A DNA stretch of 64,000 nt, from positions 13,726 through 77,725 of the forward strand of contig JAYOTF010000013.1 in the NCBI GenBank assembly GCA_038150265.1, written 5' to 3'. The translations under genes were made by a program, and so were the position numbers. Shown here in pieces: positions 50,490 to 63,980 of this stretch (positions within the stretch are counted from its first letter, which is position 1; each line of letters opens with the position of its first letter). This DNA comes from Deltaproteobacteria bacterium (GTDB taxonomy: Bacteria; SAR324; NAC60-12). A model generated the notes under the pieces. It worked only from the letters and a program-made list of their open reading frames with translations, was not told the DNA's origin and did no database searches.

Positions 50490-50966
50490 TCAGAAGAAGC
50501 ACCGGAGCAGGATCAGGGTCGGGAGGTCGGTGTTGGCGGTCTTGAGGTAGAGGCGGTGTTCCTGTGGTCGCGCGTAGTCTTCCTTGAGGCGATTGTAGCG
50601 GCGGTCTCGGTTGCTGGCGGTGCAGACGAGCGGGCCTTCCAGCACCTGCTCGCCCTTGCGGCAGCTCAGCGTTTTGCCTTCCGCCACCAACTCGCTCCCA
50701 AGGGTGGTCCAGAATTTTCCAATGTCGCAGCCCCATCCCGTGACCTCCGTGAGGGTGCCTTCCGTGGTGACCGGAAGGGTTTCAAACGGACCCCGGGGGC
50801 CTTCCCGGAACACCAGCACCTCCCACTTGAAGAAATCGGCGTGGGCGGTCCACGGGTGGACGAGCAGCAGCAGGCCAACCAGGGCGTGCCGAACCCCCGG
50901 ATGTGAAAAACGCCTGCCGGAGCAAGGTTCGTTGAATGTTTCCAGGAGGTGTGAAAAACTGATCAT
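50490..50966 (-). CDS. Hypothetical, probably exported protein (start uncertain)
   Basis: Signal-like ALVGLLLLVHPWTAHA followed by a Cys-containing domain. Confidence 0.5.
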   Translation of the reverse strand: MISFSHLLETFNEPCSGRRFSHPGVRHALVGLLLLVHPWTAHADFFKWEVLVFREGPRGPFETLPVTTEGTLTEVTGWGCDIGKFWTTLGSELVAEGKTLSCRKGEQVLEGPLVCTASNRDRRYNRLKEDYARPQEHRLYLKTANTDLPTLILLRCFF

Positions 50967-51014
50967 TCTTGGGTTTCCGCCTTAATTTTGACACCTTTCA
51001 GTAGAACCCTTCCA

Positions 51015-51506
51015 ATGAGCGAAGACAATTCGATTTTCCAGGCCCATACCGTCACTTCCGAAGAGTGGGAGCTGACGATGGATCAACTCTTCATGGGGTG
51101 CATTCATCGCTCCAAACACGGCTTGGCCATGTACACCAACACGATGCGGGCCCGGACGGATGACAAAAAGGGGTTCGTGATGACCGATGTGAGCTTTCGC
51201 GTCAAGAACGGCCTGGACTCGAAGCTGGCCAAGGCGCTGAAGATTGAGCGGTCCGAGTTTGACGGTCTGTTGGAAATTGAACGATCAGCGACCCCGGTGG
51301 TCTATGATTTTTTCAAAGTAACGGATACAGTATTACCGAACAATGCTTTGATCAATTTTGTCCATGCCGGAGACCGTCACGCCATTTTGGTCTTCTCTCC
51401 CATTGAGGGCCGTCTGGAGATGATGCGGGTGATCAACACCTTCAACAGCATTCTGGATCCAGAAGGAACCCAGGCAGCAGAAGCAGGGCAGGCTCCGGAC
51501 GCTTAA
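51015..51506 (+). CDS. Hypothetical protein
   Basis: Protein-like ORF MSEDNSIFQAH... directly upstream of lon. Confidence 0.65.
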   Translation: MSEDNSIFQAHTVTSEEWELTMDQLFMGCIHRSKHGLAMYTNTMRARTDDKKGFVMTDVSFRVKNGLDSKLAKALKIERSEFDGLLEIERSATPVVYDFFKVTDTVLPNNALINFVHAGDRHAILVFSPIEGRLEMMRVINTFNSILDPEGTQAAEAGQAPDA

Positions 51507-54270: not shown

Positions 54271-55665
54271 ATGGAATCAATGGTCCGGACCCTTTCTCCG
54301 TCTGATGGACGCGTGGTGGTCGAGCGCCCCTTTGCCTCTGCGGCAGAGCAAGCGGCCTGCCTTTCTCAAGCCCGTGCCGCACAGGCCAAGTGGCAACAGA
54401 CTCCACTGGCCACCCGCCAGGAAATCCTCACCCGGGCCGTCGATCGGATGGTGGCCCAGAAGGAGGAAATTGCTGCTGAAATCACGATGCAGATGGGACG
54501 TCCAATTGCTCAATCCCCCGGAGAGGTCAATGGCTTTGAGGAGCGCGCCCGGCACCTGATTTCCATTGCCGACTCAGCCCTTGCGAAGGTCGATCCCGGA
54601 CCCAAGACCGGCTTTGAGCGCTGGATTGAGCGCGCTCCTCTGGGCGTGGTGGTGGTCATTGCGCCCTGGAATTTTCCGTACCTGACTTCAGTCAATGCGG
54701 TCTGGACCGCCTTGCTGGCCGGAAACGCGGTGGTGCTCAAGCACTCGCCTCAGACGCCGCTGTGTGCCGAGCGCTACCAGCAGGTGCTTCAGGAAGCCGG
54801 GCTCCCGGAGGGCGTCTTCCAGTACCTGCACCTTGACCTGGACGGGACCACTGCGTTGGTGCAGGATCCGCAGGTGGACTTTGTGGCCTTCACCGGATCG
54901 GTGGAAGGGGGCCATGCCGTCACGCAGGCCCTGGCCCAGTCGTTCAAGGGCTGTGGTCTGGAACTGGGGGGCAAGGATCCGGCATACGTCCGGGCCGATG
55001 CCGACCTGACTCAGGCGGTCGAGACCCTGGTCGATGGGGCCTGCTTCAACTCCGGACAGTCCTGTTGCGGCATTGAGCGCATTTATGTTCACGAGTCGCT
55101 GTTTGATGCCTTTGTGGAGCAGGCGGCAGCGCTGATGGCCAGCTACCGGTTGGGCGATCCACAGGATCCGGAAACGAACCTCGGGCCGCTGGTGAATCCT
55201 CGCGCGGCCGACAAGGTCCGGAGCCACGTTCAGGAGGCACTGGAGCAGGGGGCCACCGCCCATGTGGACCCGGCGCTGTTTCCGGTCGCTCAGCCCGGGA
55301 CGTCCTACTGCGCTCCGCAGCTGCTGACCAACGTCACGCATGAGATGACGCTGATGCGTGAAGAAACCTTCGGGCCGGTCGTGGGGGTCATGAAGGTGCA
55401 GGATGATGAAGAGGCCCTGGCGCTGATGAACGACAGCCGCTACGGTCTGACCGCAGCGCTCTTCACCCGGGACGTGGCTGTTGCAGAGCAGCTGGCCGCC
55501 CGGCTGGAGACCGGGACCGTCTTCATGAACCGGTGCGACTACCTGGATCCGGCGCTGGCCTGGACCGGTGTCAAGGATTCTGGACGCGGCTGCACCCTCT
55601 CTGCCGTCGGCTTTGAGCACTTCACCCGCCCCAAAAGCTACCACTTCCGCCTGCCAACCTCCTGA
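54271..55665 (+). CDS. Aldehyde dehydrogenase family protein
   Basis: APWNFP, FTGS, LELGGKDP, FNSGQSCC, EETFGP. Confidence 0.94.
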   Translation: MESMVRTLSPSDGRVVVERPFASAAEQAACLSQARAAQAKWQQTPLATRQEILTRAVDRMVAQKEEIAAEITMQMGRPIAQSPGEVNGFEERARHLISIADSALAKVDPGPKTGFERWIERAPLGVVVVIAPWNFPYLTSVNAVWTALLAGNAVVLKHSPQTPLCAERYQQVLQEAGLPEGVFQYLHLDLDGTTALVQDPQVDFVAFTGSVEGGHAVTQALAQSFKGCGLELGGKDPAYVRADADLTQAVETLVDGACFNSGQSCCGIERIYVHESLFDAFVEQAAALMASYRLGDPQDPETNLGPLVNPRAADKVRSHVQEALEQGATAHVDPALFPVAQPGTSYCAPQLLTNVTHEMTLMREETFGPVVGVMKVQDDEEALALMNDSRYGLTAALFTRDVAVAEQLAARLETGTVFMNRCDYLDPALAWTGVKDSGRGCTLSAVGFEHFTRPKSYHFRLPTS

Positions 55666-55682
55666 TCGGCTCCCCTCCTCCC

Positions 55683-55703
55683 AGGCTCCCTCAAGGGGAG
55701 CCT
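55683..55703 (+). terminator. Hairpin after the aldehyde dehydrogenase
   Basis: aggctccct-caa-ggggagcct. Confidence 0.45.
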
Positions 55704-55717
55704 CCTGTAAAAAATTC

Positions 55718-55745
55718 TTGCAATCCTCACTTTTCTTGTTATTTT
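55718..55745 (+). promoter_or_regulatory. Candidate sigma-70 promoter with extended -10
   Basis: TTGCAA-16 nt-TATTTT with TGn immediately before the -10; AT-rich upstream element. Confidence 0.5.
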
Positions 55746-55751
55746 TGTGGA

Positions 55752-56035
55752 TTACCTACCGGCCTGATCCGGTAGGCGCAAGTCAGGCCCTCAGCACCCT
55801 GTTCTGGCTTAGCGTAGACGTCAGCACCCCCAGCATCGTCTTATGCCGGGAGTTGAAGGATTCGATTCATGCCAAATCCCCTTCGGGTTCTGACGGAACT
55901 TCATCAGTGATTGTTATGGGTAGTACAAACGACGAGAGGCGATGCCGAACGGAAGCGCGTGTCCGCGTTCCGGGTCGGAAGTCCGCAGCCTAGGCCGTCC
56001 TGTACTTCATAACGGGACTCGGCCTCGCTGAGCTT
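55752..56035 (+). ncRNA. Candidate structured non-coding RNA or leader upstream of speD-speE (family not recognised)
   Basis: Nested complementary segments and a 5' pseudoknot (see findings); starts right after the promoter; no credible CDS in this ~630-nt intergenic gap. Confidence 0.55.
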
Positions 56036-56297
56036 CCCTCCCCCCTTCCGTTCCTCGCACTCCGCATCCCTCTCGAAAACGGGCATTCCCGTGTTGGTTG
56101 GCTCCACGCAGGCAGCAATGGCTCCTGACGCTGAAGCCACGGTTTGGTTCGTTGACCCCTTCGAGTCCGCCTCATCCGCCTGAAATCGGTCTCCGTGTTG
56201 CCCCTGTGGTCCGGAAGCCTCGGGCCGCTCCGGTTGCGCCACAACGCCGCTGACGGGGCAGAGGCATGCGATCATCTTTTAGCAATGAGGAACCCCC

Positions 56298-56777
56298 ATG
56301 GCCTTGAACATCATTTATCGCGGAAAGAACAACCCGGCTCCCACCTTCCTGAAGGCACCGATTGACCTGGAAGATGAGTTGAACCGCAAGGACCACTTCA
56401 TCGTGAAAGACGGGGTCACCTGCGCGGGCACCCACGTCATCATTGACCTCTGGGATGCCACCGAGCTGGACAGCCTCGAGGCCATGGAAGCAGCCATGCG
56501 GGAGGCCGTTGAGGTCTGTGGCGCCACCCTGCTGCACATCCACCTGCACCACTTCACTCCAAACGGAGGCGTCTCTGGCGTGGCAGTGCTTGCCGAGTCG
56601 CACATCAGCGTGCATTCGTGGCCTGAGCGCGGTTTTGCCGCATTTGACGTGTTCATGTGTGGAGACGCCAAGCCTGAGCTGGCGGTGGATGTCTTCCGGA
56701 AGCACTTCAACCCACGCCGTGTGGAAGTTCACCAGCACCTCCGGGGCACTGTCGGGAGCAGCAATGGAACGGTTTGA
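56298..56777 (+). CDS. speD: S-adenosylmethionine decarboxylase proenzyme
   Basis: GTHVIIDLW, GGVSGVAVLAESHISVHSWPE (Glu-Ser self-cleavage site), DVFMCG. Confidence 0.96.
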   Translation: MALNIIYRGKNNPAPTFLKAPIDLEDELNRKDHFIVKDGVTCAGTHVIIDLWDATELDSLEAMEAAMREAVEVCGATLLHIHLHHFTPNGGVSGVAVLAESHISVHSWPERGFAAFDVFMCGDAKPELAVDVFRKHFNPRRVEVHQHLRGTVGSSNGTV

Positions 56778-57612
56778 AGAGCAGCTTTATCCGGAGTGGG
56801 CGCAGACGTTCAAGATCGATGAGGTGCTGTTTGAGCACCGGACCGAGCACCAGCACCTGATCATTTTCAAGAATGCCCAATTCGGACGCGTGATGGCGCT
56901 TGATGGCATCATCCAGACCACCGAGGCGGACGAGTTCGTTTATCATGAAATGCTGGCGCATGTGCCGCTCTTTGCCCATGGCGAAGCCAAGCGGGTGCTG
57001 ATCATTGGAGGGGGAGACGGAGGGTTGCTCCGGGAGGTGCTCCGGCATCCGGAAGTGGAGCATGTCACGCAGGTGGAAATTGACGGGCAGGTGATCGAGA
57101 TGGCGAAGGAGTTGCTGCCGAATCACTCGCAGGGCGCCTTTGACGACCCTCGGGTCCGCATCGTCATCCAGGACGGCATTGAGTACGTGAAGACCTGCAC
57201 CGAGGCGTTTGACGTGATCCTCAGTGACTCCACCGACCCGATGGGGCCAGGCGAGGTGCTCTTCACGTCTCCGTTTTACACCGGGTGCCAGCGTTTGCTC
57301 GGAGAGCAGGGCATTTTGGCCACCCAAAATGGGGTGCCTTACCTGCAGCTGGAAGAAGTCCGGGTGACGCACCAGCGCCTGAAGCCACTGTTTGCAGACG
57401 CCTTCTTTTATGGCGCATCGGTGCCGACCTATGTGGGAGGAATCATGACCTTTGGGTGGGCCACGCAGAATCCGGAGCTGCGGCAGCAACCGGCGTCCGT
57501 GCTGCGGGAACGCTTTGAGCAAGCGGGGTTCCGGACTCGCTTCTACACTCCGGAGCTGCACCACGGCAGCTTTGCGCTGCCTCAGTACGTCCTCGACAGC
57601 TTCCTGGGCTGA
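56764..57612 (+). CDS. speE: Spermidine synthase (polyamine aminopropyltransferase)
   Basis: ALDGIIQTTEADEFVYHEMLAH, LIIGGGDGG, VEID, DSTDP. Confidence 0.96.
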   Translation: MERFEEQLYPEWAQTFKIDEVLFEHRTEHQHLIIFKNAQFGRVMALDGIIQTTEADEFVYHEMLAHVPLFAHGEAKRVLIIGGGDGGLLREVLRHPEVEHVTQVEIDGQVIEMAKELLPNHSQGAFDDPRVRIVIQDGIEYVKTCTEAFDVILSDSTDPMGPGEVLFTSPFYTGCQRLLGEQGILATQNGVPYLQLEEVRVTHQRLKPLFADAFFYGASVPTYVGGIMTFGWATQNPELRQQPASVLRERFEQAGFRTRFYTPELHHGSFALPQYVLDSFLG

Positions 57613-57705: not shown

Positions 57706-58380
57706 TCACTCCGGCGCCAGCCGCTGTTCCAGCCAGGCGACCAGGCGGGTCACCAGAAAATTCAGGACCAGGTAAAGGGCCCCGGCGACAATGAAGATCT
57801 CGATGGGGGCGTACGTCTTGGCGATGATGGACCGGGCAACCCCGGTCATTTCCATGAGGGTGATGGTGCTGGCAAGCGAGCTGGCCTTGACCATGAGGAT
57901 CATTTCGTTGCCGTAAGCCGGCAAGGCGATGCGAGTGGCCTGAGGCAAGAGGACCCGCCGGAAGCGCTGCAGCGGACTCATCCCAAACGCGAGGGCCGCT
58001 TCAATCTGCCCGTGTGGGACCCCCTGAAGGGCCCCTCGGAAGATCTCGCTCGCATAGGCGCCGGTGTTGAGCGTCAGCGCCAGCACGGCACACCAGTACG
58101 GCTCCCGTAGCAAGATCCAGAGCCAGCTTTCCCGGATCCATTCGACCTGCCCAAGTCCGAAGTAAATCAGAAAGATCTGCACCAGCAGCGGGGTCCCCCG
58201 GAAGACAAACACGTAGCTCTTGACGAGCTGAGTTGCCAGGGAACCGCCGTACACCCGCAGCAGGGCCAGCGCCAGCGCGAGGAAGAAGCCCAGCAGGAGC
58301 GACATCCCAACCAGCTGCAGGGTTTCTCCCAGTCCGCCCAGAATCTTGGGGAGGCTGGAGCTCATGAGGTCCCAGTTCAT
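57706..58380 (-). CDS. Polar amino acid ABC transporter permease (HisM-like)
   Basis: FRGTPLLVQIF, AYASEIFRG, GQIEAA. Confidence 0.92.
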   Translation of the reverse strand: MNWDLMSSSLPKILGGLGETLQLVGMSLLLGFFLALALALLRVYGGSLATQLVKSYVFVFRGTPLLVQIFLIYFGLGQVEWIRESWLWILLREPYWCAVLALTLNTGAYASEIFRGALQGVPHGQIEAALAFGMSPLQRFRRVLLPQATRIALPAYGNEMILMVKASSLASTITLMEMTGVARSIIAKTYAPIEIFIVAGALYLVLNFLVTRLVAWLEQRLAPE

Positions 58381-59078
58381 GTGCGTGATGCTCCACGGTT
58401 GGCCCAGCGTTCGGCGCGGACAAAGCCACGTTCACTGAGGGAGGTCAGAACGAGGAACAGCACGGCAGCGGTGCTGTAAAAGAGAAACGGGCTGCGTTCG
58501 GATCCGGAAGCGACATAGGCCTGCCGCATCAGCTCCACCAGTCCGGTGACTGAGATGAGGGCCGTATCCTTGAGGGTGAGCTGCCAGACGTTTCCCATGC
58601 CAGGCAGGGCCAGCCGGGCCGTCTGCGGAACCAGCACCCGGGAAAACAGCGTCATGCGTGGCATGCCGATGGCGTGCGCGGCTTCCAGCTGTCCCTTTGA
58701 AACCGCCTGCACCGCGCCTCGGATGACCTCGGTGGAGTAGGCGCCGCTGATCAGTCCGACCGCAACCACGCCAATGGCAAAGGCGGGAACTTCAATGTAG
58801 CCCTCATGTCCGAAGATGCTGGCAACGAACATGACCGCTCCATTGCCTCCGAAGAAGAGGAGGTAGATGATGAGCAACTCCGGAACCCCTCGGATGAGGG
58901 TGGTGTAGCCATTGGCCAACCAGCGCAGCACCCGGGGACCTGAGAGCTTGACCCACGCCAGCAGGGTGCCAATGACGGTGCCCAGCAGCAGCGAGCAGAC
59001 TGAAACCGCCAGCGTCATGAGCATGGCGAGGAGCATTTCGTCTCCCCAGCCGTTGGGGCCAAAGGCGAGTTTTTCCAT
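58377..59078 (-). CDS. Polar amino acid ABC transporter permease (HisQ-like)
   Basis: RGVPELL, AYSTEVIRG, GQLEAA, LKDTAL. Confidence 0.92.
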   Translation of the reverse strand: MEKLAFGPNGWGDEMLLAMLMTLAVSVCSLLLGTVIGTLLAWVKLSGPRVLRWLANGYTTLIRGVPELLIIYLLFFGGNGAVMFVASIFGHEGYIEVPAFAIGVVAVGLISGAYSTEVIRGAVQAVSKGQLEAAHAIGMPRMTLFSRVLVPQTARLALPGMGNVWQLTLKDTALISVTGLVELMRQAYVASGSERSPFLFYSTAAVLFLVLTSLSERGFVRAERWANRGASRT

Positions 59079-59133
59079 GAAGGCGCACGTCAGGTGAGGT
59101 GGGGGCGGGATGCCGAAGCACCCCGCAGAGGGC

Positions 59134-59979
59134 TTACATGGAGATGTCTTTGCCGAACCACTGGTTCGAGATGCGGCTCAGGGTTCCGTCGGCCCGGACG
59201 GAGTCAATGGCCTTGTTGAACAGACCCAGCAGGTCGGTGTCGCTCTTGCGCAGACCAATGCCCACGCCAGCGCCAAAGACGTCTCCGCTCATGCGCGGTC
59301 CAGCGAAGGTGAGGGACTGACCGGAGTCGGACTCCAGGAATTCCTCAAAGGCGCCCGTGTCGGCGAGGGCGGCGTCAATCCGTCCAGAAGCCATGTCGAG
59401 GTTGAGGTCGTCCTGCGTCTGGTAGGTCCGCATGGTGGAGCCGGTGAGGTACTTCTCCACAAAATTGGCGTGGATGGTCGCCGACTGCACCCCGATGGTT
59501 TTGCCGTCAAGGACTTCCACAAGTCGATCAATGGCGGCTTTCTCGTTGGCGCTCATGCGGTCGAGGTTGATCTTCTCCGGGAAGCTGGAGCTGTCGAGGT
59601 CACTGCCCTTGGCGGTGATGAAGGACGCGCCATCGGTCATGTAGCCCTGGCTGAAGTTGATCACTTCCTGACGCTCCGGTGTGATCGACATGCCCGCGAT
59701 GATGGCGTCGTACTTGCCTTGCTGCAGCGCCGGGATGATGCCATCCCAGTCCTGGGCGACAAAGGTGCACTCGACCTGCATGCGCTTGCAGAGCTCGCGG
59801 CCCAGGTCGATCTCGGCGCCGACCAGGTTGCCATTGGCATCGGTGGCGTTCCACGGCGGGTAGGCGCCTTCGGTGCCGATCCGAACCGTTTTCCATTCCT
59901 TGGCCTGGGCGGTGAGGACCATCCCCAGCGCCAGGGCCAGAGACAGCCACAGGGTTTTCTTGAACATCATGCTCTCCAT
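59134..59979 (-). CDS. Basic amino acid (Lys/Arg/Orn/opine) ABC substrate-binding protein
   Basis: Signal peptide; IGTEGAYPPWN, WDGIIPAL, GMSITPER, GVQSATIH. Confidence 0.9.
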   Translation of the reverse strand: MESMMFKKTLWLSLALALGMVLTAQAKEWKTVRIGTEGAYPPWNATDANGNLVGAEIDLGRELCKRMQVECTFVAQDWDGIIPALQQGKYDAIIAGMSITPERQEVINFSQGYMTDGASFITAKGSDLDSSSFPEKINLDRMSANEKAAIDRLVEVLDGKTIGVQSATIHANFVEKYLTGSTMRTYQTQDDLNLDMASGRIDAALADTGAFEEFLESDSGQSLTFAGPRMSGDVFGAGVGIGLRKSDTDLLGLFNKAIDSVRADGTLSRISNQWFGKDISM

Positions 59980-59984
59980 TGCAA

Positions 59985-60764
59985 TTAGAAGTGAGTGACG
60001 CTGGCCAGAAACTGGCGGCAGCGTTCCGTGGTTGGGGCTTCAAAAACCGAAGCCGGAGGGCCCCATTCCCCCACGACTCCTTGGTCCAAAAAGAGGACAT
60101 TGCTGCTGACATCGCGGGCAAAGCGCATTTCATGAGTGACCACGAGCATGGTCCGGCCTTCTTCCGCGAGCGCTCGCATGACCTTGAGCACCTCGCCCAC
60201 GAGTTCGGGGTCAAGGGCGCTGGTGGGCTCATCGAAGAGCAGCACCTCCGGCTCCATGGCCAGGGCCCGGGCGATGCCGACGCGTTGCTGCTGTCCTCCG
60301 GAAAGCTGAATCGGCCAGGCTGCGGCACGGTCCGCTAGCCCAACCTTTTCCAGGTAGTGAAGGGCGCGGTCCCGGGCTTCGGCCTTCGGCACCTTGAGCA
60401 CGTGGATGGGGCCTTCAGTGACGTTGTCGAGGACATTGAGGTGCGTCCAGAGGTTGAAGGACTGGAAGACCATCCCGCACCGCTGCCGCAGCTTCACAAT
60501 GTCGCGCCGGGGGGCTCCCGCCTGAAAGACCTGTCCGGAGAGTGCGATGGTGCCCCGGTCGGGTTCTTCAAGAAAGTTGATGCAGCGCAGGAACGTGCTC
60601 TTCCCGGACCCGGAAGACCCGATGATGGAGACGACGTCTCCTTCGTGGGCGTCGAGAGAGATGCCCTTGAGCACTTCCACTCCTCCAAACGACTTGTGGA
60701 GGTCGGTCACGCGCAGGCGGCTTTCAGAGGCATTCGCCGAGGCAGTGGAGGAGGGATTCGACAC
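59985..60764 (-). CDS. Polar amino acid ABC transporter ATPase (HisP-like)
   Basis: GSSGSGKST, LSGGQQQR, FDEPTSALDPE, VTHEM. Confidence 0.94.
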   Translation of the reverse strand: MSNPSSTASANASESRLRVTDLHKSFGGVEVLKGISLDAHEGDVVSIIGSSGSGKSTFLRCINFLEEPDRGTIALSGQVFQAGAPRRDIVKLRQRCGMVFQSFNLWTHLNVLDNVTEGPIHVLKVPKAEARDRALHYLEKVGLADRAAAWPIQLSGGQQQRVGIARALAMEPEVLLFDEPTSALDPELVGEVLKVMRALAEEGRTMLVVTHEMRFARDVSSNVLFLDQGVVGEWGPPASVFEAPTTERCRQFLASVTHF

Positions 60765-60894
60765 AGTGGTATTGGTAAGATGAGATCCGTTGGGTTCTTC
60801 ATTAAAACCTCATATTAAATGGAGAACCTGCTACTTTGTAAAGGTCAAAGCTACATTTTTCGCCGTTTCTGTTGATTTCTCCCCAAGGAGCCGG

Positions 60895-62025
60895 ATGCCT
60901 CGTGAAACCTTCTTGCCATTGACCCTGACGGCCCCTGGAACGCAGCGCGCGCTGCGGGTGCTGGATTTTGGTCCTGCTGACGCCACGCCGCTGATCTACC
61001 TCCAGGCCTCAATTCATGCTGATGAAATTCCGGCGCTCGCAACCGCGCATCGGCTGGAGCAGAGGCTCACGCAACTGGAAGCCGAGGGCGCGTTTCGTGG
61101 ACGGGTCCGGCTGGTTCCCGTGGCGAACCCGGTGGGGCTGGACCAGCACCTGATGGGGCAGCACCTGGGGCGCTTCGAGTTTTCCAGCCGCGACAACTTC
61201 AACCGGGGCTATCCGGAGTTGGGGGACGTGCTTCCGGAGCGGCTGAAGGGGGTGCTGACGGACGATCCCGACCAGAACGTCCGGGTGATCCGGGAGGCGA
61301 TCCGGGCCGTGCTGGCAGAGCGCCCGCCTGTGAGCGCTCCGGAGGAGCACAAGCGTCTGCTCTTTGAGCAGGCTCTGGACGCCGACCTGATTGTGGACCT
61401 GCACTGCGACGATGAAGCCGAGCTGCACCTGTACACCAGCCCCTCCGGGTGGGACGCTTTTGAAAGCCTCGCTCGCCTGTTGCACATTCCGGTGGTGATG
61501 CTGGCTGACGATTCCGGAGGAGCCAGCTTTGACGAGGCCCTGCCGGGGCTGTGGACCGCTCTGCAGCAGGCTCTTCCGGAGGCGCCTCTTCCCTCGGCCA
61601 CCCGAGGCTGTACGGTGGAGCTGCGTGGCATGGAAGACGTCCGGCTGGACCTGATTGAGCAGGATACCGAGGCGATTTTGGCCTTTCTGCAGCGTCAGCA
61701 GGTGCTGGAGGGGGCCGAGGTGCCCCTCCCGGAGCCGGTTCCGCATGTGGTTCCGCTGGAGGCGGTGGACTTCCCGGCTGCACCGGTGGCCGGGATTGTG
61801 CTGTGGCACAAGCAACTGGGGGAGGAGGTCACTGAAGGAGAGCCGCTTGCGGAAATCTGGGTGCCGGGACAGGCCAGCCAGCCTCCGATTTCAGTCCGGG
61901 CCCGCTGTTCCGGACGCCTGTTTGTGCGCACTCGCCAGCGCTTTGTTGAGGCGGGCGCCAGCCTGGGGAAAATCTGCAGCGCGGCCCCGTTGCCGTGGCG
62001 GAAGGGCTACCTGCTCAACGCCTGA
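60895..62025 (+). CDS. Succinylglutamate desuccinylase/aspartoacylase (M14) family protein
   Basis: QASIHADE, ANPVG, NFNR, DLHCD, TVELRG. Confidence 0.88.
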   Translation: MPRETFLPLTLTAPGTQRALRVLDFGPADATPLIYLQASIHADEIPALATAHRLEQRLTQLEAEGAFRGRVRLVPVANPVGLDQHLMGQHLGRFEFSSRDNFNRGYPELGDVLPERLKGVLTDDPDQNVRVIREAIRAVLAERPPVSAPEEHKRLLFEQALDADLIVDLHCDDEAELHLYTSPSGWDAFESLARLLHIPVVMLADDSGGASFDEALPGLWTALQQALPEAPLPSATRGCTVELRGMEDVRLDLIEQDTEAILAFLQRQQVLEGAEVPLPEPVPHVVPLEAVDFPAAPVAGIVLWHKQLGEEVTEGEPLAEIWVPGQASQPPISVRARCSGRLFVRTRQRFVEAGASLGKICSAAPLPWRKGYLLNA

Positions 62026-63904: not shown

Positions 63905-63980
63905 GGGTCGGTAGCTCAGTTGGTAGAGCATCTGACTTTTAATCAGGTGGTCCGGGGTTCGAGCCCCCGCCGACCCACCA
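63905..63980 (+). tRNA. tRNA-Lys (anticodon TTT)
   Basis: 76 nt; acceptor stem gggtcgg/ccgaccc, D-arm gctcagttggtagagc, anticodon loop cttttaa, T-loop gttcgag, encoded CCA. Confidence 0.97.

Follow-up and report, generated by a model that had tools for sequence, protein, structure and literature searches.

Among the closest described counterparts of the RNA reported here is the spermidine riboswitch, which, according to Salvail et al. (2023; PMC10853860), is a SAM-I variant with 13 examples in a few Gram-positive genera. The same paper calls polyamines likely riboswitch ligands and describes earlier claims as unconvincing. Two further polyamine-related leaders depend on Rho. For the speF leader, which is 516 nt long and carries orf34 (SpeFL), a Rho-dependent short transcript is shown by Ben-Zvi et al. 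(2019; PMC6386406), and for the mdtJI leader with mdtU, premature Rho termination gives a leader RNA of about 280 nt according to Adams et al. (2021; PMC7815308).

The locus compared here lies in a stretch of 64,000 nt (the window) from a bacterial genome of 3.39 Mb that is 97.8% complete (G000). An aldehyde dehydrogenase gene (54271-55665) and speD (56298-56777) are separated there by 632 nt, and within this gap we found a folded RNA of about 343 nt (55751-56093, the element), which is real and conserved in three related uncultured bacteria. The comparison set contained the three genomes of the genus (G000 and its relatives G001 and G002) and 88 genomes of the phylum, 35 of which are at least 90% complete. 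Both speD and speE are single-copy in G000 and score above curated cut-offs. Most probably the element acts as a switch, not described before, that controls the synthesis of polyamines; we regard it as a real and new structured leader of narrow distribution and as a fair candidate for a riboswitch.

The element begins with two 5' hairpins, continues through a three-way junction and a conserved linker into a 3' rod, and ends in a terminal hairpin (Table 1); its length is 343 nt in both G000 and G002. The original prediction had placed the RNA at 55752-56035; a real RNA is indeed there, and it runs about 60 nt beyond 56035. Within those narrower limits, the predicted excess of folding over shuffled sequences did not appear on the plus strand (z -1.32, 21 of 200 shuffles as good); the minus strand gave z -3.09. 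At 55751-56093, the plus strand folds better than chance (z -3.70, 0 of 100 shuffles as good). In the comparison of strands and genomes, the whole element gave z -3.5 (G000) and -3.3 (G002) on the plus strand and -3.6 and -1.4 on the minus strand, and the rod with the terminal hairpin (161 nt in each genome) gave -6.4 and -5.4 on the plus strand versus -3.7 and -2.5 on the minus strand. The plus strand thus appears favoured by the rod scores, together with the promoter and the G-U pairs in H2.

Table 1 Features of the element and the adjoining genes (positions in the window).
Feature	Position	Strand	Basis or remark
Sigma-70-type promoter TTGCAA-16-TATTTT	55718..55745	+	inferred; A-tract before it; predicted start near 55751
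H1, 5' hairpin	55755..55776 (55755-62 with 55769-76)	+	pair probability 0.4-1.0
H2, hairpin (bulged A55811 invariant, loop variable)	55777..55814 (55777-87 with 55803-14)	+	pairs and shuffles
Three-way junction P1/P2/P3	55819..55895	+	22 pairs, 4 sequences
P1	55819-28 with 55886-95	+	conserved Y-U mismatch
P2	55829-36 with 55843-50	+	invariant loop CGUCUU
P3	55854-59 with 55880-85	+	variable loop
Conserved linker/switching strand GGAAC ... GGGUAGUACAA ... GAGAGGC ... GCCGAA	55896..55953	+	nearly invariant
Possible S-turn hairpin	55895-55926	+	folding z +1.86
Possible pseudoknot	P2 loop with 55931-34	+	4-5 candidate pairs
3' rod (55933-39/56069-75, 55941-45/56064-68, 55947-55/56045-53, around H7)	55933..56075	+	folding z
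H7, hairpin inside rod	55977-56037	+	one compensatory change
C-rich, G-poor tract, rod 3' strand, candidate Rho loading site	56036..56075	+	composition
Terminal 5-bp hairpin and G/U tail, candidate 3' boundary	56079..56092	+	stem kept, loop differs in G002
Candidate small frame, 16 aa	55843-93	+	
Candidate small frame, 25 aa	55916-93	+	
Candidate small frame, 29 aa	55942-56031	+	stop just before C-rich tract
speD ribosome site GAGGA	56287-91	+	
speD, S-adenosylmethionine decarboxylase	56298..56777	+	TIGR03330 131 bits, cut-off 75.65
speE, spermidine synthase	56764..57612	+	overlaps speD end; PRK00811 378 bits, TIGR00417 330 bits, both above cut-off

For six of the helices originally listed, the complementary stretches lie at the given positions and all pairs are standard in G000, and the relatives separated the conserved ones from the rest. 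The 5' hairpin (cctaccgg/ccggtagg, H1) stood, with 8/8 pairs and one C-G to U-A change in G002 and an equivalent hairpin of other sequence in G001. The H-type pseudoknot drawn over it (ggcctga/tcaggcc) did not hold as a conserved feature: it keeps 6/7 pairs in G002 and, by eye, only 3/7 in G001, and its 3' strand is part of H2. Scored as a nested helix, by a program that does not handle pseudoknots, it has a probability of 0.00-0.06. H2 has 11/11 pairs in G000, 11/11 in G002 and 10/11 in G001, with changes (G000, G002, G001) at 55780/55810 (A-U, C-G, G-C), 55782/55808 (G-C, G-C, A-U) and 55785/55805 (A-U, G-U, C-G), and its shuffle P values are 0.003, 0.002 and 0.03, the G001 5' strand being placed by best pairing. 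Two other helices tried at these columns, the long-range 55806-14/56026-34 and 55806-14/55899-905, show some compatible changes but were rejected at a probability of 0.00-0.01, and H2 fits the same columns better.

The nested rod first drawn over 55790-56032 largely dissolved: ctcagc/gctgag retains 3/6 pairs in G002, cctgtt/aacggg 0/6 and ggcttag/ctaggcc 4/7, and the pair probability of the first and last is 0.00 in G000. The helix gcatcgtctt/gaggcgatgc (55833-42/55936-45) is complete in G002 (10/10) but keeps 8/10 pairs in the G001 type, whose substitution re-forms the local hairpin P2 rather than this helix. The hairpin at 55993-56024, proposed as a competitor of two rod helices, is kept in relatives with one G-C to A-U change. 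The 9-mer tcagcaccc does occur at 55791 and 55821, but its first copy is unconserved in G002. The expected conservation in relatives was seen as compensatory changes in H1, H2, P2, P3 and H7; these apparent compensatory pairs come from only three species, too few for covariation statistics.

The junction is paired in 88 of 88 cells over its 22 pairs in four sequences, versus 30-46% in slid controls; two pairs changed on both sides, and 19 of the 22 never vary. Its folding z values are -2.2, -3.6 and -4.1, and its shuffle control, in which 20 of 500 shuffles score at least as well, was not significant. For the invariant strand 55896-55953, the possible partners are an S-turn-like hairpin, a pseudoknot with the P2 loop, the 55833-42/55936-45 helix, the rod, and a helix with 55996-56005, and three sequences cannot decide among them. 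The hairpin 55895-55926, which has an S-turn-like motif, found no thermodynamic support in its folding energy (z +1.86). The closing 7 pairs of the rod are invariant. Its C-rich tract has 24 C and 4 G in 42 nt in G000 (22 C and 4 G in G002), and 414 of 6,780,290 genome windows are as skewed.

Each of the three genus genomes carries one copy of the element, always ahead of speD-speE. Over the 143 columns of the core, identity is 92% for G000-G002, 79% for G000-G001 and 80% for G001-G002, while the four-fold sites of speD give 53%, 52% and 49% for the same pairs. The corresponding values for other RNAs of these genomes are 95/78/79% for the SAM-I riboswitch, 99/74/74% for 6S, 96/87/86% for RNase P and 97/88/88% for tmRNA. 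Since the core is about as alike as the genomes' own SAM-I riboswitch and far more alike than the four-fold sites, it is under selection as strong as that on a real aptamer. Likeness to the G001 type falls to 37-43% over the 3' part, which is hidden in G001 by an assembly gap with conserved pieces on either side. In two separate assemblies of the G001 species, the sequence breaks off inside this part or directly behind it (L003:1397-1496; end of L039), and the one contig found by a metagenome pattern scan, of the G001 type, extends 50 nt into the gap and then ends.

The range of the element is narrow. A DNA search of 61 genomes returned both same-genus relatives and two short chance matches, and the covariance model found 3 matches in the 88 phylum genomes, all genus members and none in the other 85. 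Two sequence patterns allowing 3 mismatches also gave 3 matches each in these 88 genomes. Among 86 speD loci the model matched that of G001 only (0 of 85 others), with a best E of 1.3 when the filters were off for 23 of those loci, and nothing was found in five gammaproteobacterial genomes with a close SpeD or by blastn in plasmids and phages. Three viral pattern scans gave 15, 0 and 0 matches, the 15 having unrelated flanks. Laxer filters on 40 family genomes yielded six weak matches (E 0.12-0.78), all without the junction and rejected. Their source is a repeat element of at least 200 nt, also without the junction, of which three near-identical copies lie at L170 (G016:C30; around 440-640, 1445-1645 and 1760-1960) beside frame fragments that, by their look, presumably belong to a REP-associated transposase.

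The genes themselves may have come from elsewhere. The nearest SpeD proteins outside the phylum are mostly from Gammaproteobacteria, with 60-73% identity (best 80 of 561 matches), and within the family SpeD was found in this genus and one other genus only; because of these nearest relatives and this patchy occurrence, horizontal acquisition of speD-speE is a possibility. The flanks on both sides are different in G001 (a divergent HlyD-like gene upstream, an endonuclease/phosphatase gene downstream), and the RNA, speD and speE still adjoin, so the element and speD-speE have been kept as one block. Adjoining speE in G000, an arginine/ornithine-type ABC transporter (four genes on the minus strand) and a gene of the succinylglutamate desuccinylase/aspartoacylase family occupy 57706-62025; together with speE they form a plausible arginine-polyamine neighbourhood, which is found in G000 and G002 and absent from G001. 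In genus g2, a second small gene with an IETSH motif directly precedes speD, about 500 nt upstream, at 8 of 8 loci (L012-L019); we take it by its look to encode another SAM-decarboxylase-type protein, and no leader RNA was found upstream of speD at these loci. Elsewhere in the window, two frames at 50490-50966 (minus strand) and 50988-51506 (plus strand) have no NCBIfam or Pfam match, the latter being 94% identical in G002 and followed by a frame that is presumably a Lon-type protease by sequence. The window ends with a tRNA-Lys (63905-63980), and a selenocysteine tRNA lies elsewhere in the genome (G000:C2:106403-106497).

As the original prediction stated, the structured RNA stands directly behind a candidate promoter and ahead of speD-speE. 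The promoter-like site is conserved and lies at equal distance to the first hairpin in G000, G002 and G001. It matches the consensus at 8/12 positions in G000 and G002 and at 7/12 in G001, below the 9/12 threshold of the promoter scan, so that the stricter scan does not report it. In sequence it is similar to the promoters of several tRNA genes and of RNase P in G000. Between the element and speD there is no comparable promoter in G000, and the best site in G002 reaches 5/12. speD starts 204 nt beyond the element end, the spacer being 59% alike in G002, and the whole leader would be about 547 nt from the predicted start to speD. No terminator-like site was scored in 55500-56500, and the hairpin 56079-92 did not score as a terminator either. 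We consider it highly probable that the element is the 5' part of the speD-speE transcript. Upstream, a strong 9-bp hairpin follows the aldehyde dehydrogenase stop (55683-55703, z -2.98); an A-run and no U-run comes after it, and it is absent from G002.

Part of the stretch occurs in five public runs. Four RNA libraries were compared as contigs of depth 2-3, the runs having been chosen because they contain part of the stretch, and each of the four holds one record at least 99% alike (55771-56010, 55767-55995, 55940-56090 and 55777-55924). All four records fall inside the predicted element and jointly cover 55767-56090; among the records listed for these libraries, none is identical to G000 on the aldehyde dehydrogenase gene, speD or speE. 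A rough placement sum for four records all inside the element gives 1e-4, in which the four runs may be one campaign and which is no measure of abundance or termination. The G001-type element is also in the RNA libraries, in three runs clearly and in one probably. These records show presence in libraries only, since the contigs carry no strand, ends or level.

The equal 343-nt length in two species and the tRNA-like promoter count against the leader reading, as they fit a stand-alone RNA equally well. On that reading, a stable RNA of about 343 nt would act independently or have a dual function, its own role being exerted via a protein partner or an antisense seed in 55913-55953, and speD-speE would only be read through from its strong promoter; we see this as a minority possibility that deserves weight. 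The similarity of its promoter to those of tRNAs and RNase P, its terminal hairpin, the occurrence of both G000-type and G001-type RNA in the libraries and the lack of a homologous leader at other speD genes all agree with this reading. However, the RNA stays linked to speD-speE though both flanks change in G001, its 3' half is poorly conserved in the G001 type, and its G000-G002 conservation is below that of 6S, tmRNA and RNase P. The housekeeping RNAs are all accounted for elsewhere in the genome, and no stretch of more than 15 nt elsewhere in the genome was found to be complementary to the conserved segments (the longest outside matches are 15-17 nt, and the 17-mer is sense).

The search of Rfam supported the earlier expectation that no known family would fit. 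At the gathering score only tRNA was found in the whole window; in E-value mode, 55600-56350 gave radC (16.8 bits) and WT1-AS_5 (12.8 bits), both far below their cut-offs and rejected. The homologue loci gave one E 4 match outside the element, and 20 of the 80 speD loci gave two SRP RNAs and nothing else. The claim that the element is not SAM-I, tmRNA, RNase P or SRP also held, each of these having no match here and a place elsewhere in the genome; for tmRNA there was neither a family-model match nor an ARAGORN call. 6S RNA (RF00013), tmRNA (RF00023), RNase P RNA (RF00010) and SRP RNA (RF00169) resemble the element in size class and promoter, but their models do not score here. The option of a divergent 6S-like rod can be dropped: 6S RNA is a single rod of about 180 nt with a central bubble, whereas the element is multi-branched, and the true 6S lies at G000:C35:4374-4547 and in both relatives. 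No description of the element was listed in the openly accessible literature searched, though an uncatalogued motif could stand in supplementary tables. On this sequence comparison, the element appears to match no catalogued family and to be an undescribed structured speD-speE leader of narrow distribution.

A degenerate SAM-I or spermidine-variant aptamer in 55923-56005 (CGAGA, GGC..GCC and GA, as in the base of SAM-I P2) is very improbable and already largely refuted. The genome's own SAM-I has the same short letter run, a four-helix order can be drawn by eye, and the gene context fits PMC10853860. No SAM-clan match was found, however, at E up to 10 in 55600-56350 or at E up to 5 in the homologues, and the 3' strands that would match are unconserved in the G001 type. 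By eye against the genomes' own SAM-I, the element lacks the long P2 arm and the P3 strands GCAACC/GGUGC; the P2 arm of SAM-I has kink-turn and pseudoknot roles. RF00162 finds only true SAM-I at another locus in each of the three genomes. These riboswitches score above the Rfam cut-off, that of G000 lying at G000:C21:48001-48113 (L172) before a gene that, by sequence, we take to encode O-acetylhomoserine sulfhydrylase.

Our preferred reading is that the element is a structured 5' leader of the speD-speE mRNA acting as a riboswitch-type OFF switch, a tentative model to which we give slightly less than an even chance. Sensors and their platforms commonly show an invariant sequence that pairs with different partners in different species. 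The invariant strand with its variable downstream partners, the C-rich tract and the rho gene, which is present in all three genomes, together suggest such a switch. The sensor would be the three-way junction with the invariant strand 55896-55953. Without ligand, this strand would pair with the C-rich tract 56045-75, so that the rod forms, the tract is hidden and transcription reaches speD-speE. With ligand, the strand would stay folded compactly against the 5' domain, for instance against the invariant P2 loop, leaving the tract exposed; Rho would then terminate, and after trimming as far as the hairpin 56079-92 a leader fragment would remain. We infer the ligand, the direction and the role of Rho; the putative ligand is a guess from pathway logic, with spermidine first, followed by dcSAM, MTA, SAM or putrescine.

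Constrained folding of a transcript ending just after the element is consistent with this model: when 55896-55953 is kept from joining the rod, the C-rich tract opens up, its mean unpaired fraction going from 0.38 to 0.67 in G000 and from 0.28 to 0.55 in G002. In the fold up to the speD start, the exposure is unchanged (0.36 vs 0.39). The rod is more stable than the held-open state by about 25-28 kcal/mol. Ligand binding by itself would not make up so large a difference, so the decision would need to be kinetic and co-transcriptional. In G001, the GAGAGG strand has a possible partner (-8.1 kcal/mol) in the pyrimidine run that immediately precedes the ribosome site of speD, and the gap hides the rest. 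As in riboswitches, a conserved structured domain in the 5' leader of three species precedes a more variable platform with mutually exclusive helices; but where a riboswitch motif would stand before linked genes in many lineages, this one occurs in 3 of 88 phylum genomes and at 0 of 85 other speD loci. This narrow range, unlike that of most metabolite riboswitches, counts against the OFF switch, as does the C-richness, for which the rod pairing alone is explanation enough.

The leader might also respond to a protein, or to general effects of polyamines, Mg or temperature on folding, with no selective pocket, which we think unlikely. All evidence for a leader applies here too, many competing helices have similar reach, and a hairpin surrounds the speD ribosome site and start codon in G000 (56260-56305) and G002 (L002:2080-2125). 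Yet shuffles fold as well as this hairpin does (z 0.02 and -0.72), the long invariant unpaired stretches ask for a specific partner, and no regulator gene was identified among the neighbours scanned around speD-speE. A tiny frame also starts at 56266 in both G000 and G002.

Somewhat harder to credit is a ribosome-mediated attenuator of the SpeFL/MdtU kind, in which translation of a small frame would control the access of Rho, as it does in the two enterobacterial polyamine leaders of PMC6386406 and PMC7815308. The region 55843-56031 contains three indels, every one of 3 nt (chance expectation about 1 in 27), the 29-aa frame is of equal length with the same stop (56029-31) in G000 and G002, the third genome having a gap there, and the 16-aa frame is open in all three genomes (with a GTG start in G001). 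Against this, no synonymous excess was seen in any of the six frames (5-8 synonymous vs 25-29 non-synonymous changes), the C-termini of the peptides are unconserved, and no frame has a well-placed Shine-Dalgarno site; moreover, the altered start codon in G001 belongs to a compensatory pair of P2. Two longer coding readings were rejected, a 141-aa frame (55568-55993) that has no family and is broken in both relatives, and a +1 frameshift at UUC UGA (55888-93), which meets a stop four codons on in G001.

As an unrelated fold before speD-speE, the element allows a concrete and inexpensive test of whether RNA evolved selective polyamine (or dcSAM/MTA) sensing more than once, with three natural variants in hand and a core of about 150-200 nt; if the RNA instead stands alone, an uncultured lineage would have a stable RNA that is new. 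The general weight of the element is limited by its narrow range. In its fullest form the model describes a second, structurally unrelated class of polyamine-sensing riboswitch, with a three-way junction and a strand forming an S-turn or pseudoknot, which arose in one genus and controls horizontally acquired speD-speE by unmasking a Rho site and leaving a stable 343-nt leader RNA; we find this complete picture possible and rather doubtful.

Set beside the spermidine riboswitch of PMC10853860, the element is likewise a structured leader of speD/speE-type genes with a narrow range and an expected OFF logic, but it has no SAM-I fold or Rfam score, a three-way instead of a four-way junction, no intrinsic terminator, a host that is not Gram-positive, and a putative ligand only. 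With the speF leader of PMC6386406 it shares a long leader before a polyamine-synthesis gene (516 vs about 547 nt), the lack of an intrinsic terminator and alternative structures; the Rho-dependent short transcript shown there would have its counterpart here. The sensor of that leader is a conserved and efficiently translated 34-codon frame, whereas the element displays nucleotide and base-pair conservation and no coding selection. The mdtJI leader of PMC7815308 is also a long leader of spermidine-linked genes, with premature Rho termination, but it serves an exporter induced by spermidine through a conserved peptide, while the element precedes biosynthetic genes for which repression is expected and has no conserved peptide. 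By these analogies, the element would work like the spermidine riboswitch or like the Rho-controlled speF and mdtJI leaders, and it belongs to none of them.
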